Origin: Candidatus Latescibacterota bacterium
Lineage (GTDB): Bacteria; Latescibacterota; UBA2968; UBA8231
DNA: 64,000 nt
Direction of reading: 5' to 3'
Assembly (NCBI GenBank): GCA_965203355.1
Contig: OZ241889.1
Location: 1,856,001-1,920,000, forward strand
The notes under the pieces were generated by a model. It was not told the DNA's origin and did no database searches. It saw only the letters and a program-made list of their open reading frames with translations. Within the stretch, counting starts at the first letter, position 1; each line of letters begins with the position of its first letter. A program made the position numbers and the translations under genes. Positions 4,579-59,057 of the stretch are shown in pieces.

Positions 4579-4579
4579 A

Positions 4580-7413: not shown

Positions 7414-7417
7414 GGTT

Positions 7418-9049: not shown

Positions 9050-9058
9050 AAAACCTTC

Positions 9059-11158
9059 CTATGGTGCTTTGAGCCGGCGATAGGCTTCGTCGAGCAGGTG
9101 CTGCGCGTGGGGGAAGGGGCCGCTCGCCAGCACTTGCCTCAGTCGGTCAATAGCCGCGGTATGATTTCCATTTTCCAGTTCGATGAGCGCGAGGTTGACG
9201 TGGACGTCCGGGTTGTCTGCATCCAGTTCTAGGGCTTGAAGAAAGTGCGTTCGCGCCGCTTGGGTTCGCCCGGCGAGCAGGTGCAGGGCGCCGATAGCGT
9301 TTAGGACTTCGGGCCGTCTTGCGAGAGACAGGGCTTGGTGGTATTGGCCCAGTGCGGCATCGGCTTGCCCGGCCCGCTGGAAGGCTCTTCCCAGTTCGTA
9401 GTGTAGCCAGAAGTTCTGAGGCTGCCAAGAAAGTGCCTGTTGCAAATGGGTTGCAGCCTCGGCATGGTGCCCTTGGCGGTAGAGTAGGCGACCGTAGTAG
9501 TAGTGAACCATGCCGGACTCTGGATCGCGTTCTAGAACGTGGCGCAAATGTGCTGCGGCTTGCTGTGGTTTATTGGTCGCTAGGTAAATTCGGCCTAGAA
9601 GAACGCGCGTGTCGGTGCGCCGGGGATTTTCCGCCAGGGTCTGAAGGGCCTCGCGTTCGCTTGCCCCATAGTGCTCTTGGTGGAAATACGCCACGGCTAG
9701 ATTGTGCCGGGCGTAATTATACTCTGGGTCCAATTCCAGGGCCCGGCGCGAGTAACGCGCAGACAGGGCGTAGTCTTGTTTGCGCAGGTGGACCTCGCCG
9801 AGGTCGAAGTAGAGCTGAGCGTCTTCTTCAGTCGGCGCGGCCTCGGCGAGGTTACACAGGACTAATAGGCCCCCGAGAGGAAGGGCAAGTACTGTAGTGC
9901 GGATATAGGCCCGGCGGCGCACACCTAAGTAGAGTTGAAAGGCGGCAAAAGCAGCAAAAGCGATCAACACTGGCACGACTGGCATGCGGTAGCGGGCTGC
10001 CGGAAAAAAGAGTACGATTGAAGCCGTGTACACGAGAGCGTAGAGCCGCAGCAAGGCAATCGGCGGCGTCCACTTTCCCCTCATGCTCAGCCCTAAGCCG
10101 AGCAAGCTCAGCGGGCCGATCAGGCCGAAGGGGAGCGACACGTGCCAGTCCCAGAGCAAGAGACTCAAAATTCGCGAGTGTTGGCGGGCGTAGTATATGT
10201 CTTGATTGCGCTTGGTCTCTGGGCCGCTCCAAAAGTGGAATACCTTTTTGCCGAGCAGGCCGAGATAATCGAGGGGCTGCGTGGTCATATAATCGAGAGA
10301 TTTGCCCAAGAAAAAGGCCGATTGGGCGGCTGCGGTCTTATGTCCAGAGTTTTCCGCCTCGGCGATCATGGTTTCCCACTGCATACCCGGACGCAGCGAG
10401 ACCGTGCGCTCGTAGTCTGCGTTGTTACCGATGTAGAAATTGACGCCGGCATTGGAAGAGATAAAGACGAGGTCCGATTCAATAGTCCAGTTGCGATAGG
10501 TAACGGGCAGAATAACCAAGGCTATGGGGATGATAAAAGAGAACAGGGAACGATAGGCCGATGTGCGCCGGTGCCATAGTTTCCAAGCGCAAAAGGCCGC
10601 GATAAAGAGCAAGATGTTGGGGCGAGTGAGAGCCGCAAGACCCGCGATGAGGCCGGTTAGTACCCAATAGCGTGCATGATCGCGTCTCCAGGCGATCAAC
10701 AGGCCGTATAGGAGCAGGAGATTGAGGAAGACCTCTACCGGCACGGCCAAAAGCTCACCCTCAAAGTAAAGTAGGGAACCGCATAAGGCTGTCATGACGC
10801 CGGCGATGCGGCCGACCTGCTCGCCAAAGGCGTGCCGGGCCAATGCGTACACCAATAAGCAGGAAAGAACGCCGAGGCCCACGTGTACGAGCCGGATGCC
10901 GACGAAGTAAGAAGCTGGCAGGAGCCAGCAAACGAGTGTCAGCAGGTAGATGTAGAGGGGGGATTGCCAATACGGTTCGTCCCCGCCCCAAAATGCACCG
11001 CCAGCAAGAAGGGCCTGTGCTTGTTTGAGAAAAGTCTGGGCGTCAACTATGGGCGCGTCGAAGAAGGGGCTGGCGCGATGTTCCCACAAATAGCCCAGCC
11101 GCAGTGCGAGGGCGACTAGTAGGAGCGCGATAAAAAAAAACTGGGGGCTGCGCGCCAT
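9059..11158 (-). CDS. GT-C fold glycosyltransferase family 39 (PMT/ArnT-like) with C-terminal TPRs
   Basis: About 11-12 hydrophobic segments; DA..F and P.Y.YLL loop motifs; LTRPN; RYRMPVVP; TPR tail. Confidence 0.8.
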   Translation of the reverse strand: MARSPQFFFIALLLVALALRLGYLWEHRASPFFDAPIVDAQTFLKQAQALLAGGAFWGGDEPYWQSPLYIYLLTLVCWLLPASYFVGIRLVHVGLGVLSCLLVYALARHAFGEQVGRIAGVMTALCGSLLYFEGELLAVPVEVFLNLLLLYGLLIAWRRDHARYWVLTGLIAGLAALTRPNILLFIAAFCAWKLWHRRTSAYRSLFSFIIPIALVILPVTYRNWTIESDLVFISSNAGVNFYIGNNADYERTVSLRPGMQWETMIAEAENSGHKTAAAQSAFFLGKSLDYMTTQPLDYLGLLGKKVFHFWSGPETKRNQDIYYARQHSRILSLLLWDWHVSLPFGLIGPLSLLGLGLSMRGKWTPPIALLRLYALVYTASIVLFFPAARYRMPVVPVLIAFAAFAAFQLYLGVRRRAYIRTTVLALPLGGLLVLCNLAEAAPTEEDAQLYFDLGEVHLRKQDYALSARYSRRALELDPEYNYARHNLAVAYFHQEHYGASEREALQTLAENPRRTDTRVLLGRIYLATNKPQQAAAHLRHVLERDPESGMVHYYYGRLLYRQGHHAEAATHLQQALSWQPQNFWLHYELGRAFQRAGQADAALGQYHQALSLARRPEVLNAIGALHLLAGRTQAARTHFLQALELDADNPDVHVNLALIELENGNHTAAIDRLRQVLASGPFPHAQHLLDEAYRRLKAP

Positions 11159-11196
11159 AGCGTTAGGATGATGAGGGAAAATTACGCAAGCGTTTT

Positions 11197-11244
11197 ACGA
11201 CGCGCCTTTGTCCGACTCTGAAGGAATGGGCAAAGGCGCGTCGT
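11197..11244. other. Perfect 14-bp inverted repeat (stem-loop) between the 884-aa gene and the GT39 gene
   Basis: ACGACGCGCCTTTG (11197-11210) / CAAAGGCGCGTCGT (11231-11244). No U-tract on the minus (sense) strand, so it may be an mRNA-stabilising or partial-termination hairpin. Confidence 0.65.
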
Positions 11245-11249
11245 TTTGG

Positions 11250-13904
11250 TCAATAGGCCAGCGATAAGGTTCCCGAACGCTCAGTCGAGACGTTGTCCAA
11301 GTCGATGGCGAGCCGATAGAGATAGATGCCCGGAGGGGCGACTTGACCTTGGTCATCGCGGCCATCCCACTCGACTTGGAAACTGCCCGCGGTTGAGCCG
11401 CCGGTCTGGACTTGGGCGATGAGGCGACCAGACAGGTCGTAGATTTCGAGTTGGACATCAACCTGATTGAGAACGAGAAAAAGGTCGAAGGAAAACGTGA
11501 CTTTGTCGTTAATGCCATCGCCATTGGGGGTAAAGGGATTTGGGGCGATGTGGGGAGCCCTGACGATTTGGTTGATCTCGTCGGCGACTACGAGGAGAGC
11601 ATTGGTGGCTATGTCGGGCGTGGCATCCCCATCCTCGGTCGGTTGCGGAATGAATTCGACATCGAAGCCGCCTTGGTCATTCCACACCGAGCTGGTGAAT
11701 TCTTCTGAGCCGCGAAAGAGCTTGGAACGGAAGACGATCTCGATGTTCTGGTCGAATCGGAAGTGCTCGGCACCCATCAGGGGCAGCTTAATATGCAGTT
11801 TGGACGACCCCGTGAGCGGATTTGTAACTATGCTCTGGGCAAATTGTCCTAAACTGTCAGTGCGGCCCTCTGCTGGGGCGAGACGGGTGGGATGAATATC
11901 GCTCAGAGGATCGGTCCCCGTACCAGCGGCGATTTCGGCCCAGTCTTGGCCATCGAAACGCAAGGTATCGATGCGCGTATCTGCGCTGGGAACGGCAATC
12001 TCGATCCGGTTGAAGGAGGTAGTCTCGCCGTTTTTGAAGAATGGCCGGACAAAGTAGCGGAAGGTCGTCTCCTCGCCCAAGGAGACTCGCGGGGGAAAGA
12101 TTTCGGCGACAATTCCCCCTGAGACCAGTGGCGCGTCATAGTCGAATTCGATGAAGTCCAATAGGGCCGCGCTATGCTGGGAGGAGTCAAAAAAGATGCG
12201 GAACTGGATGTAGCGAGTTCCCCCGGGCAAGGGCAGTTGGACGCCGGTGTTTTGCCATTCGGATTCGGGCAAGCTCTCGTCGATGAGGGCGTCTTCGAGC
12301 TTGAAAGGCGCCGACCAGAAGCTCCAGCCTAGGCGACCGTCGTCACCTAGGTCGACACCTAGCTCATTGTATTGAAGTTCGCGCTCGGGGACTCGGCCTT
12401 CGGGAAGCTTGATCCAGGAAAACAGATCGAGAAGATTGCCATTCTCGTCTTGGGTATCCGAAAGTCCCGGCCCCAAACGGCGGGCGTATATGTGGGTATC
12501 GAGGGTGTTGCCAACGCGGAACTGGATACGGACATCGCCATCGCGGCCGTTGCGTTTCCCACGCCAGCGCACCTTGCCCCAGTTGACTTGGTCCCCGACA
12601 ACATCGAGGGGAAACTGGTTTTCATAAGCCGTGCGCTCCGAGCCAGCGAACTGCTCTATCTCTCGGTCGTAGCGCCGAATGCGCGGAGTGGGTGTGCCCA
12701 CGTCGATGATGGCCGAGGTGTATCGCCCGTCGATGGCATAGCCGTCCCCGAAATAGCCAGCTTCGGCGGTCTCGACGTAGGTGCCTCTGGGATCGACCGA
12801 GACTACGTCGAGCCGGCCGGCGACAAAGGGCTGATCGAATTGGATATCCTTGATCACTGGGTTGAATTGACCTCGGACGGTCTGGACAAGCGTCCGGTCC
12901 GCTTGGATGGTCTCGGATCGGCTATTGATGGTGGTGTGGTCGCCGTAGCTGATGCGGTAGTTGGCGATGGTGCTGGCGGGCAAGGTCGGCCGCGGGCGAA
13001 AGACGATGCGGTTGAGATAGTAGTAGCCCATTAAGTTGATGCCGACGCCACCTCGGTTGTCGATGGCGGAGCCGTATGCCGTCTGTAGATTGCCGTCGAC
13101 AGATTTTTCTGCATCAACGCGGCCGACTACCTGTGCGGTCGCCCAGTGGTCGGCCGAAATCGGGTCGGCGATCTCACGACGAAAGCCGTATTCACTCGGC
13201 ACCACCATAAATGGACGCTGGGGATCTTTGCCGGGAATGATACCACCGAACTCACCGGCCTTGAAGCGCTGGTTGAGTAGATAGGCGAGGTTTCGCAGAC
13301 TGTCGAGACGCACCGGCCGTAGCCAAGTGGTGACATCTTGACCGTGCTCGGGTAATGGCGGGTCTTCGTCGATGAGTCCATCGCCATCGTCATCGCTTCC
13401 GTTGACAGGATCCTCGTTGAGTCGTCCGTCCCAATCGTCGTCAAAGGGAGTGTACAATCCGTCCTCATTGAGTTGACCGTCGCCGTCATTGTCGAATTGA
13501 GAATCTGGCCCGTCCTCGTCAATAAGTCCGTCGAGATCGTTATCGAAAAATTCCGGCGGGTCTTCGTCGATGAGTCCATCGCCATCGTCATCGCTTCCGT
13601 TGACAGGATCCTCATTGAGCTGACCATCTTCGTCGTTATCAACTTGCTCGTCAATGGGGTCCTCGTTGATCAGCGCATCGCCGTCATTGTCGACCAACTC
13701 GACGGGGTCTTCGTCGATGAGTCCGTCACCATCGTCATCGGCGATAAGTTCGACCGCCCAACTGCGACCAAGGTCGAGGCGACCGGTGACCGGCCGTAGA
13801 GTCCAAGGATGTACATCGTCGCCGATTCGCCACCGCTTGACTTCGGCATAGCCGTTGCAGAGTGCAAACGCGACACCGAGTACCGCTACTAATAACCTGA
13901 TCAT
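11250..13904 (-). CDS. Secreted protein with acidic DxDGDGxxxED metal-binding repeats and C-terminal CHU/FlgD-Ig (T9SS-like) domain
   Basis: Signal peptide; about 8 DxDxDGxxxED repeats; C-terminus APNPFTPNGDG...IYDLSGR...WDGRD..G...PPGIYLY. Confidence 0.8.
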   Translation of the reverse strand: MIRLLVAVLGVAFALCNGYAEVKRWRIGDDVHPWTLRPVTGRLDLGRSWAVELIADDDGDGLIDEDPVELVDNDGDALINEDPIDEQVDNDEDGQLNEDPVNGSDDDGDGLIDEDPPEFFDNDLDGLIDEDGPDSQFDNDGDGQLNEDGLYTPFDDDWDGRLNEDPVNGSDDDGDGLIDEDPPLPEHGQDVTTWLRPVRLDSLRNLAYLLNQRFKAGEFGGIIPGKDPQRPFMVVPSEYGFRREIADPISADHWATAQVVGRVDAEKSVDGNLQTAYGSAIDNRGGVGINLMGYYYLNRIVFRPRPTLPASTIANYRISYGDHTTINSRSETIQADRTLVQTVRGQFNPVIKDIQFDQPFVAGRLDVVSVDPRGTYVETAEAGYFGDGYAIDGRYTSAIIDVGTPTPRIRRYDREIEQFAGSERTAYENQFPLDVVGDQVNWGKVRWRGKRNGRDGDVRIQFRVGNTLDTHIYARRLGPGLSDTQDENGNLLDLFSWIKLPEGRVPERELQYNELGVDLGDDGRLGWSFWSAPFKLEDALIDESLPESEWQNTGVQLPLPGGTRYIQFRIFFDSSQHSAALLDFIEFDYDAPLVSGGIVAEIFPPRVSLGEETTFRYFVRPFFKNGETTSFNRIEIAVPSADTRIDTLRFDGQDWAEIAAGTGTDPLSDIHPTRLAPAEGRTDSLGQFAQSIVTNPLTGSSKLHIKLPLMGAEHFRFDQNIEIVFRSKLFRGSEEFTSSVWNDQGGFDVEFIPQPTEDGDATPDIATNALLVVADEINQIVRAPHIAPNPFTPNGDGINDKVTFSFDLFLVLNQVDVQLEIYDLSGRLIAQVQTGGSTAGSFQVEWDGRDDQGQVAPPGIYLYRLAIDLDNVSTERSGTLSLAY
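13357..13613. repeat. Identical 59-bp intragenic direct repeat (13357-13415 and 13555-13613)
   Basis: Both copies encode EDPVNGSDDDGDGLIDEDPP; the offset is 198 bp, which is in frame. Confidence 0.9.
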
Positions 13905-14038
13905 TGAATACCTCCGCGCAAGAATGTAAGCCCTTGGCTACCTACGACGAGTAGAACAAGAGTGCCGAGGGTAGTTATGCACACCAATCCAGTCCCATCG
14001 GCCGGTCTAATTACGCATTTTGGACGTTCTACTATTCT

Positions 14039-14067
14039 ATTATATAGTATAGTATTAAACATCTCAA
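14039..14067 (-). promoter_or_regulatory. Sigma70-type promoter for the leftward operon
   Basis: Minus strand reads TTGAGA-17 bp-TATAAT in the AT-rich intergenic region. Confidence 0.7.
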
Positions 14068-14261
14068 GATAGTCTAATCGGGCCGACGAGTGCTGAAAAA
14101 GAGGGGATTTTGTCGTCAATCGCTCAGATAATCACTGCGGTTGAGGTACAGATGAAGTAATTTGCAACGATTTACACGGGGTCTAAATAACCCTAACTCA
14201 CTGTTATTTATTGGACTTATCTGTCATGGATTCATTGTCTTACGGCTACCTCTAATATATC

Positions 14262-14290
14262 TTGACACGTCTTAGGCCATTGATTATCAT
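14262..14290 (+). promoter_or_regulatory. Sigma70-type promoter for the rightward operon
   Basis: TTGACA (14262-14267), 17-bp spacer, TATCAT (14285-14290). Confidence 0.7.
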
Positions 14291-14332
14291 ACAGCCTTAT
14301 ATATTGAAAGTCATCCAAAAACGAATAAAAGG

Positions 14333-15280
14333 TTGTTGGTTGAGGTGTTGGGGTCGCGTTTATTTTTTTTGACAATAGTGCTACAGATAACAGTAGGCTC
14401 GGCCAAACCGGTTTTGGGGCATTATCCCGAAGGAGTGGGCTACAGAGCCTTTCAATTTCCCGATCATTTGGTTCCCGTCATTGACGGCGATTTGAAGGAT
14501 TGGGAAGTTGTAGGCGACTCCTACGCCATATTAACGGGTCAATTTCACGACCTGATTAATCCAGAAGTTGAGGCGAGCGATTCGGATGATTTTGCTGCTC
14601 GTCTTATGGTAGGGTGGAATAAAGCGGAAAACAAGCTCTACATTGCCGCTCAGGTTCGCGATGATATCCACCAGATTGATCGTCTCGCCGGTAGTACTAC
14701 GATGCTTTTCCAAGACGACGCGATGGAATTGTTTATTGACGCGGACCACTCCGGTGGACAATTCGCTAATTTCACTGAGTTGAGCCAAGAAGAGCAACGG
14801 CGGCGCAATGGAGTTGAAGCCAACCACTTCGCTGTGGCTGGCCCGCCGCCTGACGAGGATTTTTTCGTCAATTTTTCTGCCGCTGCTTGGTACGCGCTAT
14901 CCGATGGTCCTTATACCGAGGCGGCGGTCGAGTTTATAGGTGTCTTGGGAGGAGAAGGAGTGACAAACTATGAAATCATGCTCATACCCTTTGACCGGGT
15001 CAATATTAATGCAGCCTTTCAAAGCGAAGAGCATGTCTTGCGGGAAAATGAAATCCTTGGTTTTAACATAGAGTTCAACGATTTTGACGTACATTCAGAG
15101 CTTTTTGATGCTAAGTGGTCGCTTTCGGGCCAACACAATTCGTATCGCTTTTCCGATCGCTTTGCTGACTTGATCTTGATGCCGCTAGAGGGTACATTTA
15201 CGGCCGTTGAGTCGATATCTTGGGGGCGCTTAAAAGCCTCTTTGCACACCGACCGGTACTACCGAGGAGTGTCAGAATGA
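14333..15280 (+). CDS. Secreted CBM9-like / sugar-binding-domain protein with C-terminal TAVESISWGRLK motif (start uncertain)
   Basis: PVIDGDLKDW, W....LYIAAQVRDD, DAMELFIDAD and GFNIEFNDFD are typical of the CBM9/DOMON-like fold; hydrophobic N-terminus. Confidence 0.65.
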   Translation: MLVEVLGSRLFFLTIVLQITVGSAKPVLGHYPEGVGYRAFQFPDHLVPVIDGDLKDWEVVGDSYAILTGQFHDLINPEVEASDSDDFAARLMVGWNKAENKLYIAAQVRDDIHQIDRLAGSTTMLFQDDAMELFIDADHSGGQFANFTELSQEEQRRRNGVEANHFAVAGPPPDEDFFVNFSAAAWYALSDGPYTEAAVEFIGVLGGEGVTNYEIMLIPFDRVNINAAFQSEEHVLRENEILGFNIEFNDFDVHSELFDAKWSLSGQHNSYRFSDRFADLILMPLEGTFTAVESISWGRLKASLHTDRYYRGVSE

Positions 15281-16023
15281 TGGGTTTTACGCGAGTATTA
15301 TTCTTGGCCTTGATTATCGGCTCGGGTGTGTTGGGCTGTGGATATAGCTATTACACGGGGCAGTTACAGCCCGGCCAAGATCAGGCCTCGTCTATCAGTG
15401 TGGCAGATGATGGGACGCTGACCTTTGTCCAGGATCGCTTTGAAGTGCGGCTCAAGCCTATGACTGACGAGGAGTTGAACCGCCAGTTTTTCAATAATTC
15501 CCAAGCGGGTCCTAAGTCCACAAACCCCTATACCTTTGGCAATACGGTATTTTGGGGGACCGACGAAGAAAAACAGCGCTTCACTGTCTTCCGCCTCGGC
15601 GTTAAGAATTACGCTTATCCTAAAGTCAAGATTGATCCGAGCAAAATCGTTGTCAAAGCGAGCAATAAGCGCGAGTATTGGAGCCTTAACTTTGCGCAAC
15701 TCGACACGTATTATCGCGCCTATGCCATAGGCTATAGAGGCAACGAATATGCTCGCTATCAGGAGCGTCGCGACTTGCTGCGGCGGACGATGCTCAAAGA
15801 CGAGGAAATCTTCAGCGGCCAAGAGTCGGAAGGCTTTGTTATTTTTCCCGTGCTCCACCCCGACGTGAGTGATATCGAAGTCCAAGTGCTCGATGTAGTC
15901 CTGAGATTTGACTTTCGCAATGAGCCGGTGGAGACCACCAATATTTCCTATAAATTCATCCGAGATATAGGTAAGATCTACAAGGACGGTACAGTCGTTC
16001 CTAAAGTCGCTAAGGCAAACTAG
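15277..16023 (+). CDS. Hypothetical lipoprotein
   Basis: ATGA overlap with the upstream stop, GAGGAG RBS, signal peptide ending VLGC. Confidence 0.7.
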   Translation: MMGFTRVLFLALIIGSGVLGCGYSYYTGQLQPGQDQASSISVADDGTLTFVQDRFEVRLKPMTDEELNRQFFNNSQAGPKSTNPYTFGNTVFWGTDEEKQRFTVFRLGVKNYAYPKVKIDPSKIVVKASNKREYWSLNFAQLDTYYRAYAIGYRGNEYARYQERRDLLRRTMLKDEEIFSGQESEGFVIFPVLHPDVSDIEVQVLDVVLRFDFRNEPVETTNISYKFIRDIGKIYKDGTVVPKVAKAN

Positions 16024-16057
16024 CCTTTAAGCGAGACTACCAAGGAGGAGTTGCATT

Positions 16058-16996
16058 ATGAAATCTCTGAAAATGCTTAGTGTTTTAGTCGGCGTGCTGT
16101 TCGTCGCCCAATCAAGCGAGGGGGTTGTCAACATTCAGAATATAGGCTCTGGTGCCCGTGCTCAGGGGTTGGGCAACAGCTTTGTGGCGGTGGCCGACAA
16201 CGCCGATGCGGTGTTCGCCAATCCGGCGGGGTTGGGTCAAGTTTCCCAGCGTCAGGTGGCCTACACCAATGTGTCGCTTTTGTATGCTGGCATTGAAGGG
16301 GACGATCTGGGTCAGCACGTGGTGTCCTATGCTCAGCCGTTGGGTGATCGGTTGGGCTTGGGCTTGGGCTATGAGCGGATTGGCTCGTCGCTGATGAGCG
16401 AGAATGGGGCGTTTGTCTCGCTGTCGTATCAGGTGGCGCGTCGGCTGCAGGTAGGTTTTTCGGCCAAGTATCTGTTTTGGAGTGTAGGGTCGATTCCCGA
16501 CGATCCGGTGAATGGACCGGATCCGGTGTCGAACAAGGTGGCGGGCAACGTTGGGGTTGATTTGGGCTTGCTGTGGCAGAGTCCGGTGTCGGGGGCGCAG
16601 GTGGGGGTGTTGTTGAAGAATATCAATCAGCCGAATGTGGCCTATGGGGAGGTGGCTGGCGATGCGGATGCGGGTGGGTTGCCGATGGATGTGCATGTGG
16701 GTGTGGGGTATCGTCTGAGCGGTGAGTCGTTGGTTTCGGTTGAGTATGTTCGTCGCGATTTGACGGGTGCTGGTTCGTCGGATGGGTTGGTGGTTGGTGG
16801 GGAGACGGAGTTGGTAGAGGGCTTGTTGTTGCGCGGCGGGGGTCGTCGTATGTTGTCGGAGGACGCTGGGGCAGGGTTGAATGCGGGGTTGGGGTATCAG
16901 TGGAACCAGTTGGTGTTTGATTATGCCTATGACATTGGTTTGGATTTGACGGAGACCAATGGCGCCCATCGCTTCTCATTCGCATACGAATTCTAA
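16058..16996 (+). CDS. PorV/PorQ-like (FadL-superfamily, UPF0164-like) outer-membrane beta-barrel
   Basis: Signal peptide; GARAQGLGNSFVAVADNADAVFANPAGL signature; amphipathic strands; FDYAY...HRFSFAYEF with terminal Phe; AGGAGG RBS. Confidence 0.8.
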   Translation: MKSLKMLSVLVGVLFVAQSSEGVVNIQNIGSGARAQGLGNSFVAVADNADAVFANPAGLGQVSQRQVAYTNVSLLYAGIEGDDLGQHVVSYAQPLGDRLGLGLGYERIGSSLMSENGAFVSLSYQVARRLQVGFSAKYLFWSVGSIPDDPVNGPDPVSNKVAGNVGVDLGLLWQSPVSGAQVGVLLKNINQPNVAYGEVAGDADAGGLPMDVHVGVGYRLSGESLVSVEYVRRDLTGAGSSDGLVVGGETELVEGLLLRGGGRRMLSEDAGAGLNAGLGYQWNQLVFDYAYDIGLDLTETNGAHRFSFAYEF

Positions 16997-17048
16997 AAAA
17001 CTTGATAAACTCCAAACGAGAAACCTAGGGTAACAAGGAGATACACAA

Positions 17049-20000
17049 ATGACGGTCTGGGCTGGACTTATCGCGCTGGGATTGGGGCTAGGAGCTAGCC
17101 TTTTCCTACCGGTGCCGCAAAATCTGAAGACCAGTTTTGACGCCGGACAATCTCTCTACGCCCTTGGCGAGTTTGAAGGGGCGATCATTGAGTATTCAAA
17201 GATCGTCAAGTTTGACAGTAAGGCCGTGCGTACCGACAGTGTGCGGGTAGTGTTTGGCAACGGCTTGGAATTGCCCGTAGTTGCGGCAGCTTGGTATCAG
17301 CTAGGCAACGCCTACAAAAAGAGCGGGCAACACGAAGAAGCGGTAGGATCCTATCGCCAAGTTCTCGACGTAGGCAGCGTCGCCGAGGATTTCAAGTCCT
17401 TGGTGCAGTTCCAAGTTGCTGAGACTCGCTTCCTCGCCAAAGAGTATGGCGAGGCCGCAAAGGAATACAAGCGATATGTCGAGTTGTTCCCCGATACGCC
17501 GGAAGCTGGCAAGGCGTATTTTTACGCGGGCTGGAGCGAGTTTAATACAAAAGAATACGACCAATCCATCGAAACGCTCAACGGCATGTTGGCGGCTTAT
17601 CCGCAAGATCGTTATGCGTCGGATTCGCAGTTCCGTATCGCCAGTTCCTTTTACGAGAAGGGCGAGTATGCCAAAGCCGTTGAGATGGCCCAGATAATCC
17701 TCGATAAGTATCCCAATAGTCCGGTTATTGCCCAGGCCCTTTATCTAGAGGCTAACGCCTACGACCAGATGGGGCGCGACGAGGAGGCAATTAAAGCCTA
17801 CCGCGATGTGCGCAATCTCTACGACCGGATGTTTGAACTCTTGCGCGGTTCGTTTCGCGAGGGTAAAAATGTCGATTTTGAAAACTATCGACAGCTTTTT
17901 GAGACTTCCTCGTTGCGCGTTGCTGAGATCTTCCGCAAAACAGACCAATTTGAGGAAGCCTACCAAGAGTTGATCGCCGCCCAAGAAACCGCTGAGGAAC
18001 GCTTTTATAAAGCCAAGGTGCAGATGAGAATCGGCGACAACTACATGGAGTGGGAGAAATTCGACGAGGCTTGGACTGCTTACAACCAAGTGATTGAACT
18101 CTACGGGGATACGCCTTATCCGCCGAACGCTCAGTATCAGAAAGGCGAAGCCAAGTACTTCGCCGGAGACTACGCTGCTGCCCGTGAAGACTACCTACAA
18201 CTGCTGGAGGACTACCCGGATAGCGATACGGGTTTGCGCTCCGCAGCACTCTATAGCGCAGGTTGGTCTGCCGAGAAACTCGGCGTGGTGGAGCTGGCTA
18301 TCGCAAGCTACACGCGGGCAGTGGACAACTTTCCCCGCTCCGACCAGGCACCATTGTGCTTATTGCGCATCGCTCGTCTAAACTACGAGCAGCAGAAAGT
18401 TGAGGAGGCCATTGAAGCCTATAAGGCTATAACGGAAAGCTATCAGGATACGCGGCACATAGCTGATGCTTACTATGGCCTTGGTATTCTCTACCGAGAC
18501 GAAGATCGGAAAGACGAAGCCATCGTTGCTTTTTCCAAGGTTGACCGCGATGCCCGCGAGACGTACATCGCTGCGCTGATTGAGGCGGCTAATCTCTACA
18601 TTTCTCAAGATCGCATCGCCGAGGGGCGTAAGCTGCTCAATCAACTGCTAGAAGGTGTGACCGGCGACCGCGATTTGGAGGCTAGAGCCCATTTCCAGAT
18701 GGCCCAACTCGATCTCAATAATAAAAATTACGTTGATGCAGTCGAGCGCTATACTATGGTACTTGAAGAGTACCCAGAAAGCGATGTCATTCGCGACACC
18801 CGCTACGGACGTGCATTGGCCTATCACTATTCGGGCCGTTATGACCGTGCGTTGCTTGATTACAAATGGCTATTGGACACTAAAGTTCCCCCAGCTATGC
18901 AGCTAAAGGTCTCCTTCTCGATGGCACTGTCGTACTCGGCGGAAGGCAATGACGACGAAGCGGAGAAACTGCTGAACGAGGTCGTTGCTTCAGGAGACGA
19001 GAGCTTGGTGCGTTCGGCGCGGCTGCAGCTAATCTCAATGGCCGAGAAGAAGGGCAATCCAGAGGAAGCGGTGCGCATCTATGAAGAGATGTTGGCTACT
19101 ACTACCTCGAGTGAAGACCGGGAGCGTTTACTAATTCGCTTGGCCAATGCCTACTTCAAACTGGATAAGTTCCAACAGAGTATTGAAGCAGCCCAGGCAC
19201 TCATTGACTTGGCCATCAATGCTGAGAGTATTGCCAATGCGCTCTTTGTCCAAGGCAACTGTTTCTACCGATCCGAGCAGTTCGTCCAAGCGATTGCCAC
19301 GTATAACACCATCATCGAAAATTACCCGCAGATTGCTTGGGCCAGAAATGCCCAATTCCAAATAGGCGTAGCTTATAACAAACTATCGGCTAACGGCAAT
19401 GTTGACGTGCTACCAGCAATGTCCCAAGCGTTTAATACTTACTACACCCAATATCCTGACGACGAGCGCGCTGTGCATGCCTACTACTACGATGCTTGGG
19501 CGCATTATCGGATGGGTAAATGGCGCGATGCCAGCGATATTTTTGCTAACCTAGCAGATAAATATCCGCAGTCTCGCTATGCGTCTGAGGCGCTTTTTCG
19601 TGCTGGCGATGCTCTGTTCAACATGACCAATAGAAGCGGCGTGGAGAACAAAAACCAGCACTACCTAGATGCCATGGGCTACTACGACCGAATCATTGGG
19701 CGCTATTCTCAGTCGGCCCATGTGGACGATGCTCTCTACAACAAGGCTTGGTGTCTGATCAACCTTGACCGCAAGGAAGAAGCGGTGCCAATCTTCGAGA
19801 GAATAGTTGCTGAACATCCCAACGGTACGTATGGGCCCCGTAGCCAGTTTACGCTCGGAGATTACTATTACGGCCTCAAGGATTACGAAAAGGCCACCGA
19901 AAGCTACCAGACTTTCTTGGATCGCTTTCCCGCTGACAAGTTGATTGCCCAAGACCGGGCACTGCCGAACAAGGCAAGGACTCTGCTCGGACATTTGGCT

Positions 20001-20294
20001 GAGATCGATGCCTACAATCTTTATGCAACAGGCGAACAGCTTTTGGCCGAGAAAAATTACGACGAGGCCGTGGCGATCTTCAAGGAAGTGCAGCAGAAGT
20101 ATCCCACGAGCGATCAGGCTGTCAATTCACTAGTCAACATCGGTGCCGCCTATATGGCCCAGGAGGAATTCCGTTTGGCTGGTGCCGTCTTTCAGGAAGT
20201 CGTCGACAAATATGGCGACAACTCCAAATACGTACCGCAGGTGGACTATGCCAGAGAACAGCTACAGGTAATGCAAGAAGCTCGCGTCCTTTAA
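17049..20294 (+). CDS. 1081-aa TPR protein (BamD/YfiO/CpoB-like TPR_6 repeats), N-terminally anchored
   Basis: N-terminal hydrophobic segment; long run of TPR pairs with repeated YP.S..A..A.(F/Y) turns. Confidence 0.85.
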   Translation: MTVWAGLIALGLGLGASLFLPVPQNLKTSFDAGQSLYALGEFEGAIIEYSKIVKFDSKAVRTDSVRVVFGNGLELPVVAAAWYQLGNAYKKSGQHEEAVGSYRQVLDVGSVAEDFKSLVQFQVAETRFLAKEYGEAAKEYKRYVELFPDTPEAGKAYFYAGWSEFNTKEYDQSIETLNGMLAAYPQDRYASDSQFRIASSFYEKGEYAKAVEMAQIILDKYPNSPVIAQALYLEANAYDQMGRDEEAIKAYRDVRNLYDRMFELLRGSFREGKNVDFENYRQLFETSSLRVAEIFRKTDQFEEAYQELIAAQETAEERFYKAKVQMRIGDNYMEWEKFDEAWTAYNQVIELYGDTPYPPNAQYQKGEAKYFAGDYAAAREDYLQLLEDYPDSDTGLRSAALYSAGWSAEKLGVVELAIASYTRAVDNFPRSDQAPLCLLRIARLNYEQQKVEEAIEAYKAITESYQDTRHIADAYYGLGILYRDEDRKDEAIVAFSKVDRDARETYIAALIEAANLYISQDRIAEGRKLLNQLLEGVTGDRDLEARAHFQMAQLDLNNKNYVDAVERYTMVLEEYPESDVIRDTRYGRALAYHYSGRYDRALLDYKWLLDTKVPPAMQLKVSFSMALSYSAEGNDDEAEKLLNEVVASGDESLVRSARLQLISMAEKKGNPEEAVRIYEEMLATTTSSEDRERLLIRLANAYFKLDKFQQSIEAAQALIDLAINAESIANALFVQGNCFYRSEQFVQAIATYNTIIENYPQIAWARNAQFQIGVAYNKLSANGNVDVLPAMSQAFNTYYTQYPDDERAVHAYYYDAWAHYRMGKWRDASDIFANLADKYPQSRYASEALFRAGDALFNMTNRSGVENKNQHYLDAMGYYDRIIGRYSQSAHVDDALYNKAWCLINLDRKEEAVPIFERIVAEHPNGTYGPRSQFTLGDYYYGLKDYEKATESYQTFLDRFPADKLIAQDRALPNKARTLLGHLAEIDAYNLYATGEQLLAEKNYDEAVAIFKEVQQKYPTSDQAVNSLVNIGAAYMAQEEFRLAGAVFQEVVDKYGDNSKYVPQVDYAREQLQVMQEARVL

Positions 20295-20337
20295 CTTTTG
20301 CTTTTTTTGCGTCTTAACTCTTAAGGAGGGAAAAGAA

Positions 20338-20991
20338 ATGATTGAACTTTTTCGCGAAGGCGGACCTTTTATGTGGCCTTTGGCACTCTGGTCTATGCTT
20401 TCTATTGCGTTCTTTCTCGAGCGTATTTATACGTATGCACGGCTGCGCTCCGAGGACCAATTGGCCGAAATCACCAATGATATCAACGCGCGTATAGATT
20501 CGGGTGCATCCATTGACCAACTCAAGGAATACTGCACCGAAGTTAGCAAACTAGAAGGCGAGGTGTACGGCGAGGGACTTGAGCGCTTTGAACACTTGTC
20601 GCGCGAGCAGCGCACGATGGAGGAGATGCGCGAGGAAATGAACGGTACGGTTGAACGGGCCGCTTTGGGGTATCTCGAACGGTATTTAGCCGTTATCGAC
20701 TTCGTTTCCAAGTCCGTGGTGTTGCTTGGTCTGCTGGGCACGGTCAACGGTATGATCAACGCGTTTGAAGGTATTGCGGAAAAGGGGCTTGGTGAACCGA
20801 CGATCGTAGCCGCAGGTATTTCCGAAGCACTAATCACTACAGTTACCGGTCTGGTGATCGCCGTGCCTTCAATCGCTATCTTCACGTATTTTAGCAACCG
20901 TGCCACGGGCAAGTCTGTTCAGTTTGAAGCATATGGCCACGGTTTTGTGGACGCTCTGCTACGTCGTTGGCAAGGTACGCAAGCTGCCTAA
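20338..20991 (+). CDS. exbB: MotA/TolQ/ExbB proton-channel protein
   Basis: GGPFMWPL; LLGLLGTVNGMI; GISEALITTVTGLVIAVP. Confidence 0.9.
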   Translation: MIELFREGGPFMWPLALWSMLSIAFFLERIYTYARLRSEDQLAEITNDINARIDSGASIDQLKEYCTEVSKLEGEVYGEGLERFEHLSREQRTMEEMREEMNGTVERAALGYLERYLAVIDFVSKSVVLLGLLGTVNGMINAFEGIAEKGLGEPTIVAAGISEALITTVTGLVIAVPSIAIFTYFSNRATGKSVQFEAYGHGFVDALLRRWQGTQAA

Positions 20992-21020
20992 GGCAGCTCT
21001 TCTTAGGAGGCATGAGATAG

Positions 21021-21428
21021 ATGGCTGAGAGAGTAGAAAAAAAAGAACTGACCATGCCCGATCTGACTCCGATGATTGACGTGGTCTTTCAGCTACTCAT
21101 CTTCTTTATGGTAACCGCTGTGTTCGCCATTACTCCGGGTTTGGATATTAAATTGCCCGAGGCCGAAGAGGCCCAGGCCCCGGAGAAGGAGAACCTCTTT
21201 ATCGTCGTGGATCAGGACGGCAACATGAAGTTGAACCACAAGTCGGTGACCTTTGCAACTCTCAAAGAGGAATTGCAAGCGAAGAGACAGCTGTTGGACA
21301 ACACCACGATGATTATCATCCAAGGAGACGAGCGCTCCACGCATGGGCAAATCGTCCAGATCATGGACATTGCCCGCCAAGTGGGCGTCGTTGATCAGGT
21401 CATCGCCACGGAACCGCAACGCAACTGA
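21021..21428 (+). CDS. exbD: ExbD/TolR biopolymer transport protein
   Basis: DLTPMIDVVFQLLIFFMV with the conserved TM Asp; IKLP; IQGD...HG.IVQIMD. Confidence 0.92.
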   Translation: MAERVEKKELTMPDLTPMIDVVFQLLIFFMVTAVFAITPGLDIKLPEAEEAQAPEKENLFIVVDQDGNMKLNHKSVTFATLKEELQAKRQLLDNTTMIIIQGDERSTHGQIVQIMDIARQVGVVDQVIATEPQRN

Positions 21429-21468
21429 ATGAGGTTTCTAGGCCCTGTTAGTAATAGGGAGAAGAACT

Positions 21469-22830
21469 GTGGTAGACGAGTATAAAAAATCAGTACAAGC
21501 CCGGCGCCAAAAAACGGTCTATATGGCTGTCGGTGCGGCTCTTCTCATTCACGTACTCTTCATCCTGTCCAAATGGGTGGTAATCGCCGCCGGTTTGGCA
21601 GGTGCTGGAGTACTGTTGTACGCCTTATATACGGCTACCACCGGCCGTCGGATGAGCATGGGAGTGGCCTTTTTTCTCTCGGTAGCCATCCACGCTGGCG
21701 TCTTCGTTTACGACTATCTCTTTGGCATTGGCGAAGAACAGGAAAAGGAGCAGCTGATTATTTTTCGTGCTCCTCCGCCCATTCTCGAAAAGAATTTCGA
21801 CTTAGCCAAGCGACCTGAGATATCCGAAGTGCAGATGGAGATGATACAGTCGATGGCACCTCCGGATTTGCCGCAGGATATATCGGCGATAGCCGATGTT
21901 AGCGCGGTAGGTAGCGACCTGCTGAGCTCGGTCTTACCCGGTTCGCAGGTCTTGGGTGCCTTTTCGGGGGCCAAGGCCGAAGAGTTGGCCTTCGACGAGG
22001 TCGCGATGATCGAACTGGCGGAAACGTCGGCACCAGTGCAAGAGGCGATGAGCCTGAGGCACGAATTGCTCAATGTCGGCGACTTAGACATCGGTCGCTA
22101 TCAAGCGATCTTGATTCATGATCCCGACAATAAACGCAATATCCGTGGCTTCTTTAACATGACAGTCATTGACTATGATATCGCAGACAAGAATAGCGAT
22201 CGGTTCCCAACTGCGGTAGAGGAGTTGATGCGCTATATGCGCGATCATACCCAAATTAATGCCCGAATCGAGGGCACGACTTTGGAATTTTCGGATCCGC
22301 GCATCATGGAAGCTCCCATGATTTATGTGACGGGCAACGACGCTGTCTTGCAAATCAGCGATACAGAGAAAACCAACCTAGGCGACTATCTCAAAAACGG
22401 TGGTTTTCTCTATGCCGAGGAAATTCGCCAAAGCGACGCTGAGAACGGACTTGAAGGCAAAGAAGCCGGAGTTTCGGGTACGCCGTTTGACCGCCAGTTC
22501 AAAGCCCTAATGAAAGATCCGCTAGTGTTGGGTAGCGACGGCTCCAAGTGGCAGAAAATGCCCAAGAGCCACGATCTCTACTACAGCTTCTGGGATTTTC
22601 CCGATGGTCCGCCTATGGGCGGCGCACCGGCTGGCAATGTGTTCGACTTGGAGATGCTGGAACTGCGCGGTAGGGTTGCGGTGGTCTTCAGCGACTTAAA
22701 TATTAGCTGGTACTGGGGAGACCCGCTAGCCGATGCACGCGAGCGCGGGTTACAGTTCGGGGTCAACCTAATCGTCTATGCGTTGACTCAGCCGGGTGGC
22801 ATCGCCAACGTGACCCAGTTCACTCAATAA
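21469..22830 (+). CDS. TonB/TolA-like membrane-anchored protein with C-terminal DUF4159-like domain
   Basis: TM helix with S-x3-H (SVAIH); acidic/Pro-containing linker; C-terminal PMIYVTG, NLGDYLKNGGFLY and FGVNLIVYALT resemble DUF4159. Confidence 0.7.
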   Translation: MVDEYKKSVQARRQKTVYMAVGAALLIHVLFILSKWVVIAAGLAGAGVLLYALYTATTGRRMSMGVAFFLSVAIHAGVFVYDYLFGIGEEQEKEQLIIFRAPPPILEKNFDLAKRPEISEVQMEMIQSMAPPDLPQDISAIADVSAVGSDLLSSVLPGSQVLGAFSGAKAEELAFDEVAMIELAETSAPVQEAMSLRHELLNVGDLDIGRYQAILIHDPDNKRNIRGFFNMTVIDYDIADKNSDRFPTAVEELMRYMRDHTQINARIEGTTLEFSDPRIMEAPMIYVTGNDAVLQISDTEKTNLGDYLKNGGFLYAEEIRQSDAENGLEGKEAGVSGTPFDRQFKALMKDPLVLGSDGSKWQKMPKSHDLYYSFWDFPDGPPMGGAPAGNVFDLEMLELRGRVAVVFSDLNISWYWGDPLADARERGLQFGVNLIVYALTQPGGIANVTQFTQ

Positions 22831-22856
22831 GCACCCTTAGAATAGCAAGAAGTTCG

Positions 22857-22898
22857 GATGCCCTACTGGTAAATCGACCGGTAGGGCATCTTTATTTT
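22857..22898 (+). terminator. Rho-independent terminator ending the rightward operon
   Basis: GATGCCCTACTGGT / ACCGGTAGGGCATC 14-bp stem (one G-U pair) followed by TTTATTTT. Confidence 0.85.
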
Positions 22899-22914
22899 GA
22901 CCATTCCCTTCCAC

Positions 22915-24204
22915 TCACACCGATCCCCTTATCTGATCCCAGACATCGAAGTATGTCGGAAAAGTTTTGCCGACGCATCCTGGATCATTGATGTGGATTC
23001 CGGGCACTCGCAATCCGACTAGAGCAAAACTCATAGCTACTCGGTGATCCTTATAGGTGTCGATGCTGCTGCTTTTGGGGGTAGAAGGCGCGATAGTAGC
23101 ACCATCCTGGTGTTCTTCTACTTCTACGCCGAGCCGGCGCAGTTGGGCGACCATAGCGGCAATCCGGTCCGTTTCCTGCCAGCGCGTATGCTCGATGTTG
23201 CGGATACGCACTGGATCCTTGGCAAAAGGAGCGATCGCGGCCAGCGTCAATGAGGTGTCTGATAGGGCCTTCATATCGACGTCTATGCCTCTGAGTTGAT
23301 CCGGCCCGATCACCTCAACGCCGCGGGCGTAACGGTTGACCGTGCAGCCCATCTTCTCGAGCACATCAACGAAGTGGATATCGCCTTGGGCTGAGTCGGC
23401 GGCAATATCGGCTACGCGTACCCGACCACCGGTGAGCGCAGCGGCGGCAAAGAAGTACGAGGCGTTGGAAGCATCTGGCTCAATGGCGTAGGCACGGGGC
23501 GTATAGCATTGGCCGCCAGCGACGCGAAAGCGCTGGTATTCGTCGTGCTCGACCTCGACCCCAAATGCCTGCATTACCGCCATAGTGATGTCGATATATT
23601 CTGTCTTGAACTCGCTGACTATTTCGATTTCTAAGCCGTTGTCGGCGTAGGGAGCGACGAGCAGCAGCGAAGTGAGGAACTGGCTGCTCTTGCTGGCGTC
23701 GAGCCGGGTTTTTCCACCTCTGAACCCCTTGGCTTGCACCTCTATGGGTAGGCAGTCATTGGCGAAGCGCGAACGAGCGTCGACACCGAGTTGGCCGAGT
23801 GCATCGAGCAGATCCGCCATCGGGCGGTGCTGGCGCATGGGCGCGTCGCCGTCGATGACGAAGGTCCCATTGCCAAGCGCAACATAGCTTGTGATCGACC
23901 GCGAAGTGGTGCCCGAATTGCCGATATACAGTTCGGCACCATCAACGGGAATCCGTCCTCCATTGCCTGTAACCACGAAGCTGGCCGCCTGTGGATCGGC
24001 CTGTATGGAGACACCGAGCTTGCGCAGTGCTTGGGCCATGTAGTCGGTATCGTCGCTAAAGAGTGCGCCCGTAAGGTGCGATTCTCCGTTGGCTAGTGCT
24101 GCGACTAGCAGTGCCCGGTTGGTATAGCTTTTGGATCCGGGAACGGAGACTTCGGCGTCGAGCGGTTTTTGCAGGGGTTGTATTTCGAGTGAATCAGCGT
24201 TCAT
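22915..24204 (-). CDS. aroA: 3-phosphoshikimate 1-carboxyvinyltransferase (EPSP synthase)
   Basis: PGSKSYTNRAL, GNSGT, SSQFLTSLL, EPDASNASYF, ETDRI, DHRVAM, KTFP. Confidence 0.97.
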   Translation of the reverse strand: MNADSLEIQPLQKPLDAEVSVPGSKSYTNRALLVAALANGESHLTGALFSDDTDYMAQALRKLGVSIQADPQAASFVVTGNGGRIPVDGAELYIGNSGTTSRSITSYVALGNGTFVIDGDAPMRQHRPMADLLDALGQLGVDARSRFANDCLPIEVQAKGFRGGKTRLDASKSSQFLTSLLLVAPYADNGLEIEIVSEFKTEYIDITMAVMQAFGVEVEHDEYQRFRVAGGQCYTPRAYAIEPDASNASYFFAAAALTGGRVRVADIAADSAQGDIHFVDVLEKMGCTVNRYARGVEVIGPDQLRGIDVDMKALSDTSLTLAAIAPFAKDPVRIRNIEHTRWQETDRIAAMVAQLRRLGVEVEEHQDGATIAPSTPKSSSIDTYKDHRVAMSFALVGLRVPGIHINDPGCVGKTFPTYFDVWDQIRGSV

Positions 24205-51748: not shown

Positions 51749-51833
51749 CGCGCCGGCATTGCGGATGCGCTGGGCTGGGGCCATATTGTCCGCGTTTGCA
51801 TCCCGCTAGCATCGCTTCTGAAGTTGGTTTTTG

Positions 51834-56676: not shown

Positions 56677-56756
56677 GATCGCCGCTCCTCGTCGATGCGG
56701 TAACAAATAGCCTGGGCGCTGGTGTTCAAATTGGTAACTCAATAGCTTCTAAAGCT

Positions 56757-59054: not shown

Positions 59055-59057
59055 GCC

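Follow-up and report, generated by a model that had tools for sequence, protein, structure and literature searches.

To our knowledge, only a handful of systems carry the proton motive force (PMF) from the inner membrane to the outer envelope, namely Ton, Tol-Pal, Agl-Glt and GldLM. TonB and TolA share a common layout, in which a membrane helix with a histidine is followed by a disordered linker and a globular head. Here, we examine a seven-gene operon (g1 to g7) on the + strand of a 64,000-nucleotide stretch of Candidatus Latescibacterota DNA (assembly GCA_965203355.1, contig OZ241889.1, positions 1,856,001 to 1,920,000; hereafter the window, whose own numbering is used throughout). The operon encodes, in order, a CBM9-like protein, a lipoprotein, an outer-membrane barrel, a giant TPR protein, an ExbB/ExbD-type pair and a putative force transducer of the TonB/TolA layout with a DUF4159 head.

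Several described systems resemble this arrangement in part. Force transducers headed by a vWA domain and encoded beside TPR-tolQ-tolR genes have been described from comparative genomics (Williams-Jones et al. 2025, PMC12204202); the taxa given for them in the available portion of that article are Proteobacteria, PVC, Bacteroidetes and Rhodothermaeota, and Latescibacterota is not listed there. In type IX secretion systems (T9SS), sub-complexes of PorE, PorP and a type B protein bearing a C-terminal domain (CTD), and of SprF and SprB, are described by Gorasia et al. (2022, PMC9143113, accessible portion). The Agl-Glt core of Myxococcus comprises aglRQS together with gltD/E/G/C, genes that are clustered in non-myxobacteria including one member of the Fibrobacteres, and GltG is the TonB-like partner of the Agl motor (Luciano et al. 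2011, PMC3169522, according to the accessible part).

Our analysis leads us to view the operon as a PMF-driven, envelope-spanning module of the Ton/Tol/Agl class that serves surface proteins of the type of CTD884, an 884-residue CTD-bearing protein encoded divergently from it. We regard this reading, in which the module is an accessory in part of the phylum and not the core energiser of SprA, as somewhat probable on balance. Within it, the motor and its transducer are much safer than the cargo.

A putative DUF4159-headed transducer beside an ExbB/ExbD pair

The last three genes encode the motor and its arm. The g5 product (20338..20991, 217 aa) is a stator subunit of the ExbB/TolQ type (MotA_ExbB, PF01618, 82.8 bits) and that of g6 (21021..21428, 135 aa) a subunit of the ExbD/TolR type (ExbD, PF02472, 98.6 bits) with an aspartate in its membrane helix (..MIDVVF..). 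Both score higher against the Tol than against the Ton families: g5 reaches 79.9 bits with TolQ (TIGR02796, cut-off 221) and 53.5 bits with ExbB, staying under both equivalog cut-offs, and g6 reaches 67.9 bits with TolR (TIGR02801, cut-off 127.3) and 51.6 bits with the ExbD equivalog.

The TonB/TolA-like g7 protein (21469..22830, 453 aa) combines membrane helices, a disordered linker and a DUF4159 head. DUF4159 (PF13709) matches residues 234-439 at 88.5 bits, against a gathering cut-off of 25.9, and is the sole Pfam family in the protein at E <= 0.01, the threshold at which NCBIfam and Pfam matches were taken for all seven proteins. The last membrane helix, a hydrophobic segment at residues 62-84, contains the motif S71-x3-H75. 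Its histidine is found in 27/28 aligned family members (alignment A1) and in 56/61 of another set (A3), while the residue four positions earlier is serine in 11/28 and alanine in 16/28. A basic, proline-containing stretch follows the helix, with the consensus KPLTTQFVKRxPRLTKPLELKKRP. The AlphaFold2 model, built from 84 sequences with a mean predicted local distance difference test (pLDDT) score of 78.5, places helices at residues 2-58 and 64-85, a disordered linker at about 86-200 (pLDDT <50 over 119-198) and a folded head at about 205-445 (pLDDT >90). The first 60 residues, which form an extra helical hairpin, are present only in close relatives, distant orthologs matching from residue 58-65. 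In sequence and model, g7 is built like TonB or TolA, with a histidine-bearing membrane helix, a disordered linker and a folded head; the first-pass annotation of the window had read the same architecture from an SxxxH-containing membrane helix, a linker and a DUF4159 domain beside an ExbB/ExbD pair, and its reading holds.

The best structural match of the head is 4i66 (E 5.9e-9, TM-score 0.78 on the target, root-mean-square deviation (rmsd) 3.8), an uncharacterised Haliangium protein that the g7 sequence profile also matches (E 9e-26), and ThuA-like, DJ-1 and IFT52-N structures come next. There is no vWA entry among the 50 best structural matches listed for the head and no VWA Pfam family at E <= 0.01, and a Pfam search at the same threshold found no TonB_C domain (PF03544) in g7. 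The head is a DUF4159 domain, modelled with a ThuA/DJ-1-like fold similar to class I glutamine amidotransferases, and is neither a TonB nor a vWA domain. A catalytic role as a glutamine amidotransferase seems unlikely, because no invariant cysteine occurs in the g7 alignments.

An exhaustive profile-free search for the transmembrane (TM)-DUF4159 family returned 761 clusters at E <= 1e-3, a number that falls to 321 at <= 1e-10 and to 44 at <= 1e-30; many members, 400-430 aa long, can be aligned with g7 from near residue 60 through to the C-terminus. The organism names obtained from a homolog search and two cluster look-ups for this family were of Latescibacterota only. In a full-text literature search, the term DUF4159 occurred only in the Pfam database paper, and the solved homolog, Hoch_4089, in no paper. 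A known stator is here joined to an arm whose DUF4159 head appears never to have been studied.

Conservation of the operon and its rearranged versions

Comparisons were made through relatives, the main reference being the closed genome G001 (4.5 Mb; locus L001), a close relative whose g7 is 98% identical; homologs and related loci are labelled Candidatus Latescibacterota. From 200 confirmed loci, on contigs of one genome per species, the best 80 were kept, 67 of which have a g7 match that reaches the anchor or linker. Each gene was then scored only in those of the 67 loci with enough upstream DNA to hold it. Counted in this way, ExbD is kept in 62/66 loci, ExbB in 58/62, the TPR protein in 42/44, the barrel in 33/37, g2 in 27/34 and g1, the least conserved member, in 25/33. 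The order barrel-TPR-ExbB-ExbD-DUF4159 is retained in nearly all relatives, a point that the first-pass annotation had named as support for its reading; the exceptions are L073 and L078 (two paralogs in other settings), L079 (on a cut contig) and L076, as well as L060 and L080 for the barrel. The seven genes are kept together across Latescibacterota, and a rearranged form occurs in at least two other phyla.

This rearranged version is larger and was found at three distant loci (L074/G006, L079/G007 and L080/G005, the last labelled Zhuqueibacterota). Its first part encodes a barrel of the PorP/SprF kind, an outer-membrane protein of 877-909 aa in which one region resembles the SlpA_C barrel, a TPR protein of ~1040 aa, ExbB and ExbD. 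The second part consists of two TM-DUF4159 genes in tandem, then genes for two lipoproteins, one g2-like and one CsgG-like, and for a HEAT-repeat protein, and CTD-bearing GHL10 and Golvesin_C proteins stand at the downstream end.

Within Latescibacterota, 96 of the 150 genomes sampled match the g7 query at E <= 1e-10, the level taken as presence, and the best match reaches E <= 1e-100 in 66. Furthermore, a single genome may hold several related systems. Three ExbB-type motor loci are present in G001: a canonical TPR-ExbB-ExbD-ExbD-TonB set with TonB_C (L105), the operon itself and a paralogous system (L117/L106). In its first part, the paralogous system carries genes for a CBM9-like protein and a 1005-aa protein, then for a g2-like lipoprotein, a CTD protein, a g3-like barrel and a 1020-aa protein; the second part has a 1090-aa TPR protein, ExbB, two ExbD genes, a second g2-like lipoprotein, a peptidyl-prolyl isomerase (PPIase) and an FGE-sulfatase protein. 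Its TPR protein is 24% identical to g4 over the full length (E 5e-73) and its ExbB 37% identical to g5. A further locus without ExbB (L116) encodes an 891-aa protein, a 1038-aa TPR protein, a g2-like lipoprotein and a 469-aa DUF4159 protein, so that paralogs of g4 of 1038-1090 aa occur in two further G001 systems. The paralogous motor cluster also includes a 661-aa polytopic protein without a Pfam match (L106:11009-12994), and the window itself encodes a 662-aa DUF6785/DUF6784 membrane protein at 51831-53819.

Association of the g2 lipoprotein family with CTD-bearing proteins

The g2 gene (15277..16023) encodes a conserved lipoprotein of 248 aa with a lipobox (...VLG, then C) and an Ig-like beta-sandwich in its model. 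A longer open reading frame begins at 15220; the true start is most likely 15277, since in L012 the upstream extension of the ortholog is interrupted by a stop codon and the lipobox cysteine is common to all ten aligned relatives. No Pfam, NCBIfam or PDB sequence-profile match was obtained for g2. The model (pLDDT 88, predicted TM-score (pTM) 0.82) combines the Ig-like sandwich with a helical hairpin, and the fold gave no functional lead: Foldseek and VIA-align returned only generic YcdA/YjhA/MPT63-like Ig sandwiches at Z 7-8, the best being 4r4g (Z 8.2, rmsd 4.3 over 125 residues), and an Atlas search returned unnamed lipoprotein clusters together with weak DUF4352 and LssY_C leads at 0.79-0.82 only.

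A g2 profile is positive in 91/150 Latescibacterota genomes, with up to at least 17 scored copies per genome and 13 in G001. All 13 of the G001 copies lie 1.9-9.1 kb from a CTD884-like gene, when 17.9% of the genome is within 10 kb of one, and not one of 200,000 random placements in G001 put 13/13 within 10 kb. At least five G001 loci (L108, L110, L112, L114, L115) are co-oriented cassettes of a g1-like gene, the g2-like gene that it precedes and one to three CTD884-like proteins that carry CHU_C/FlgD_ig, some with F5/8 type C domains; L107, L109, L111 and L113 are variants of this cassette. A PpiC-type PPIase of 555-594 aa is encoded beside the g2-like gene in L107, L108, L109 and L113. A different configuration is seen at L076:5766-6905, where a TonB_C domain forms the C-terminus of a g2-like lipoprotein whose gene adjoins a TM-DUF4159 gene and a 1091-aa TPR gene; no ExbB or ExbD was recognised in that part of the contig.

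CTD884 itself (11250..13904, - strand) is divergent from the operon and matches FlgD_ig (45.1 bits) and CHU_C (38 bits); by the NCBIfam tail models it scores 23.7 for type A (cut-off 23) and 28.9 for type B (<35). In close relatives, and likewise in L037, its gene is found upstream of g1. A second CTD-bearing protein of the window is encoded at 54010-56676 (+), and the presence of such FlgD/CHU-CTD proteins, remarked on in the first-pass annotation, is borne out by both. The passenger region of CTD884 (residues 250-790) was found in 69/150 genomes, all 69 of them among the 91 that are g2-positive and none among the 59 that are g2-negative. With the passenger as query, an Atlas search brought up nothing beyond unnamed related clusters (scores 0.86-0.88), some of which have F5/8 type C domains. 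The CTD884-like family is hugely expanded in G001, with 91 matches in 4.5 Mb, partly in tandem (seven around 4458-4473 kb, for example), and at first look other genomes have up to 205 candidates.

Taken together, the statistical link between the g2 family and the CTD cargo genes is genuine. CTD884 is the probable cargo partner of g1, g2 and g3, and the operon probably acts on secreted surface proteins.

Operon boundaries, remaining genes and neighbourhood

The seven co-oriented open reading frames span 14333-22830. Upstream of g1 is a sigma-70-like promoter site, TTGACA-17-TATCAT (14262..14290, +), which matches at 11/12 positions and is the best + strand site in 13900-23000; downstream of g7 is an intrinsic-terminator-like element (22856..22899, +), whose hairpin with a T run (22856-22891) has 15 pairs, 8 of them G-C, followed by TTATTTTG. 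As classes, neither promoter-like sites (10 vs 7.9 +/- 2.9 in shuffles) nor terminator-like sites (14 vs 8.3 +/- 3.5) exceed chance; these two are the strongest of their class on the + strand and stand at the two ends of the operon. With g2 starting at 15277, g1 and g2 overlap by 4 nt, and the other intergenic gaps are 29-52 nt. The seven-gene unit drawn in the first-pass annotation between a promoter and a terminator is hence recovered, with the start of g2 corrected. The G+C content of the operon region (14001-22000) is 0.47-0.55, compared with ~0.60 for most of the window.

The first gene, g1 (14333..15280, 315 aa, start codon uncertain), encodes a secreted CBM9-like protein with a hydrophobic N-terminus (CBM9_1 26.7 bits, cut-off 23.4). 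The g3 product (16058..16996, 312 aa), which has a signal peptide and ends in ...FAYEF, is an outer-membrane beta-barrel protein of the PorV/PorQ/PorP superfamily. It scores 77.8 bits with the PorV/PorQ family NF033709 (cut-off 90), 45.2 bits with PorQ and 43.5 bits with PorP/SprF (TIGR03519, cut-off 90.55), and a distant ortholog (L074:220-1188) passes Pfam PorP_SprF at 23.5 against 22.3. The earlier description of g3 as a PorV-like barrel stands at the level of the superfamily, to which its sequence assigns it, and does not extend to any curated T9SS barrel family. The g4 gene (17049..20294) encodes a predicted periplasmic protein of 1081 aa with matches to TPR families and one N-terminal hydrophobic segment; its repeats are of the YbgF/CpoB type in 11 stretches and also of the BamD type, and it reaches 113 bits with PorW/SprE, below the cut-off of 250.

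Pfam and NCBIfam detected no TonB-dependent (plug-domain) receptor, TolB or Pal among the seven proteins, and no peptidoglycan-binding domain. A Plug protein of the window is encoded at 56757-59054, 34 kb away. The operon fits neither classical Ton uptake nor Tol-Pal, as had been supposed from the sequence at first sight. That more distant part of the window (54010-59993) encodes a CotH-kinase/lamin-tail protein with a FlgD_ig CTD, then a CarboxypepD_reg and Plug receptor, then a DUF4249 protein.

RNA-library contigs of relatives, drawn from four metatranscriptome libraries of three studies and 88-99% identical to the window, together account for every one of the seven genes; some run across gene junctions, such as 16736-18786 and 20908-23197 in run X16 and 14383-16452 in run X19. 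Run X13 reaches a summed depth of 200-960 across 14152-22983, compared with 0.3-73 upstream and 17-53 downstream. In one relative's contig (X19, record 27), an insertion of 1758 letters at the terminator region (22841-22923) separates the end of g7 from aroA. Runs labelled as sponge metagenomes contain at least 60% of the operon's sampled words. The carriers include abundant sponge-associated bacteria, in which contact with the host may be mediated by the very large surface-protein families.

A model for the operon

By analogy with their families, ExbB (g5) and ExbD (g6) would form a proton-driven stator in the inner membrane, on which the histidine-bearing membrane helix of g7 would dock as TonB and TolA do, and the disordered linker of g7, ~110 residues long, would cross the periplasm. 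Its presumably non-catalytic DUF4159 head could then meet partners on the outer-membrane side, for which the gene context offers the g4 TPR protein, the g2 lipoprotein and the g3 barrel. The gene neighbourhoods suggest that the force might serve the anchoring, release or movement of CTD884-family proteins on the PorP-like barrel, a step that would be analogous to the handling of the type B cargo PG1035 by PorE-PorP and of SprB by SprF (PMC9143113, accessible portion).

It is possible, though doubtful, that the scheme is broader still: g2-like lipoproteins may act as cargo-specific outer-membrane adaptors, each beside its own CTD proteins, while a few shared ExbBD motors act on them via DUF4159-tipped arms and the PMF is spent on the release, anchoring or movement of T9SS cargo on PorP-like barrels. 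Such sharing would resemble the many TonB-dependent receptors that share one TonB, working outwards instead. If true, the PMF would be put to this use in phyla whose T9SS has no detectable GldLM motor.

Several observations weigh against the cargo-serving module that we prefer. Evidence for the cargo link comes from gene neighbourhood in a single genome and from co-occurrence inside a single clade, and shared descent could produce the pattern of 69 among 91 genomes. CTD genes are very numerous (the 91 matches in G001), and CTD884 is not adjacent to the operon in L016, L031, L033, L052 and L053. Furthermore, g3 fails every T9SS barrel cut-off, and the choice of partner for the DUF4159 head is a guess. 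Finally, the RNA-library contigs point to expression of the operon, but cannot prove a single transcript or exclude carried-over DNA.

Type IX secretion and alternative explanations

SprA scores over its cut-off in 5/5 genomes of a first test set, in 144/150 Latescibacterota and in 61/61 genomes of a second phylum, that of G006; the G001 protein has 2117 aa and reaches 628.5 bits. No genome of the three samples has GldM over cut-off (0/5, 0/150 and 0/61), nor do the first five have GldM_1st, GldL, GldN or GldK (0/5 each), by models that lack a positive control: those for GldK/L/M/N matched in none of 14 control genomes, which include no Bacteroidota genome, and their sensitivity is unproven. 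Two candidate controls, the phylum of G006 and the genome of L076, turned out not to carry GldM. The TolB and Pal models, for their part, have controls over cut-off in two genomes each. A GldL candidate in G001 (20.5 bits) was rejected on finding that it sits in the ZorA2 protein of a type II Zorya system, and the GldK candidates were all paralogs with an FGE-sulfatase domain, at <=128 bits against a cut-off of 350. The Zorya system (L090:9014-12439, at about 3939-3942 kb of G001:C1) has ZorA2, ZorB2 and ZorE at 408, 292 and 263 bits, all below the equivalog cut-offs. The genomes searched yield SprA without GldM over cut-off, and neither a GldKLMN set over cut-off nor a scattered gene order, which together would have spoken against the first-pass annotation, was encountered in these searches. 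A literature search found no paper linking Latescibacteria with type IX secretion, and for T9SS outside Bacteroidota it yielded no more than general remarks on its possible presence in other FCB phyla. Two FCB phyla with near-universal SprA and no GldM found (0/211 sampled, no positive control) raise the question of what powers their T9SS.

One answer would be that the operon is itself a replacement T9SS motor in bacteria without GldL/GldM, energising the SprA translocon via the TPR protein and the PorV-like barrel. The first-pass annotation had leaned this way in proposing a T9SS-related system with a different motor, and the distribution of SprA and GldM, the failure to find GldM_1st, GldL and GldN over cut-off in five genomes, with GldK represented only by FGE-sulfatase paralogs, the superfamily of the barrel, the weak similarity of the TPR protein to PorW/SprE and the conserved gene order are all in keeping with it. 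We nevertheless consider it quite unlikely. SprA is present in 53 of the 54 Latescibacterota genomes without a g7 match, and in the second phylum a full-length TM-DUF4159 arm was found in 1/61 genomes (G006), 56 having domain-sized matches only and 4 none. Five closed genomes without a g7 match each encode two short DUF4159 proteins without a membrane anchor, and at the three of these loci inspected no ExbBD, TPR protein or barrel is near. The g2 family is missing from 59/150 genomes, a PorV-family protein above cut-off (168.4 bits) is encoded elsewhere in G001 beside a CTD protein, and sprA adjoins lptF/lptG, not the operon, in G001, G004 and G005; moreover, the GldKLMN models never had a positive control. 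A different ExbB-type set adjoins sprA in G005 and G006. In G005 the order is SprA, an M28-like peptidase, ExbB, ExbD and TonB with TonB_C (L092, G005:C4:90001-110000, at 2550-11576), and in G006 the strand that carries sprA also has an ExbB gene at a distance of 2 kb (G006:C11:76224-83692). The canonical Ton set beside sprA is a better candidate than the operon for a Ton-type energiser of T9SS. Because SprA persists in 53/54 arm-less Latescibacterota genomes, and in 61/61 genomes of a phylum with the arm in 1/61, we take the operon to be a cargo-linked accessory motor and not a GldLM replacement; it is not the general motor of type IX secretion. What survives of the proposed T9SS relation is the near-ubiquity of SprA, the lack of GldM by an uncontrolled model and the link from g2 to CTD cargo.

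The Tol-like scores of g5 and g6 and the YbgF/CpoB-type repeats of g4 invite another reading, in which the operon is a functional analogue of Tol-Pal whose DUF4159 arm and CpoB-like TPR protein tether the outer membrane to the wall and help constriction at division. In G001, no Pal match occurs at E <= 1e-5, TolB matches only as propeller repeats in proteins of >1000 aa, and none of the three ExbB-type loci holds TolB or Pal; the distant versions, additionally, carry a large SlpA_C-like outer-membrane protein. We judge this analogue unlikely, as all TolQ/TolR scores are far under the equivalog cut-offs, the seven proteins have no peptidoglycan-binding domain, and more than one third of the phylum sample does without the operon, which would be surprising if it had a housekeeping role in the envelope. 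Since G004 holds both a canonical TolQ...TolB-Pal cluster (TolB 406 bits, Pal 133.7 bits) and an operon ortholog (L057), the operon is not simply the Tol-Pal of the lineage; a partial take-over of that role is conceivable in genomes without Pal. Neither G001 nor G014 has a Pal match at E <= 1e-5, and part of the phylum may lack Tol-Pal. We likewise give little credence to a machine of the Glt/Nfs kind, related or analogous to the Agl-Glt core complex of Myxococcus and engaged in surface movement or coat assembly. Its parts list, likened by description only to the available part of PMC3169522, matches, and paralogous systems occur within one genome as in Myxococcus; yet no gliding family is among the NCBIfam matches at E <= 0.01 save a weak Tgl TPR match, GltG has a TonB-like motif and not DUF4159, and the mechanism would overlap with the envelope-spanning module that we favour. 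Highly improbable, finally, is an uptake system in which a FadL-like barrel imports a hydrophobic or glycan substrate captured by the CBM9-like g1 with energy supplied in Ton style. The barrel superfamily is related to FadL (a weak Toluene_X match in L074), g1 has a carbohydrate-binding-like domain and an ExbBD pair with a TonB-like arm follows the classical logic of import, but the operon encodes neither a plug-domain receptor nor a periplasmic binding protein nor a permease of the inner membrane, the recurrent neighbours of g1 and g2 are secreted CTD proteins and PPIase chaperones instead of transporters, and g1 is the least conserved gene.

Comparison with known systems

With the Ton system, the operon shares ExbB and ExbD proteins from adjacent genes, an anchor helix with a conserved histidine and a periplasm-spanning linker. 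Conversely, g7 is without TonB_C, there is no plug receptor and a separate canonical TonB cluster (L105) is found in G001. The likeness to Tol-Pal lies in a motor that scores best as TolQ/TolR, in CpoB/YbgF-type repeats and in a TolA-like three-part arm; the operon differs in having no TolB or Pal, in missing all equivalog cut-offs and in coexisting with a canonical Tol-Pal in G004.

As far as the accessible portion of PMC9143113 describes them, the T9SS sub-complexes have in common with the operon a PorP/PorV barrel, a TPR protein in the periplasm, a CTD protein of the CHU_C/FlgD_ig kind encoded alongside and a proton-driven motor nearby. The TPR protein of the operon, however, is without the propeller and OmpA domains of PorE, and its barrel is under all cut-offs. 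The motors differ too, the Bacteroidota T9SS being driven by GldLM and the operon encoding ExbBD with a DUF4159 arm. From the description in the available part of PMC3169522, Agl-Glt/Nfs shares a TolQR-type motor, a TonB-like transducer, giant TPR proteins and barrels, which are clustered and multi-copy; the transducer head of the operon is different, and gliding is not known for these bacteria.

The vWA-headed force transducers are the closest described kind, to judge from the accessible portion of PMC12204202. They have a histidine helix of the SHLS type, a disordered or proline-containing linker of ~100 residues and a globular head that is not TonB, and the gene for the arm lies downstream of TPR and tolQ/tolR-like genes, all as in the operon. 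The first-pass annotation had called the machine undescribed; with this sister class in print the term fits only in part. The operon departs from the vWA class in its head fold, DUF4159 instead of vWA, in having one ExbD gene where that class has two, and in its outer-membrane partners, to which it adds a PorV/PorP-like barrel, the g2 lipoprotein and a link to CTD cargo.

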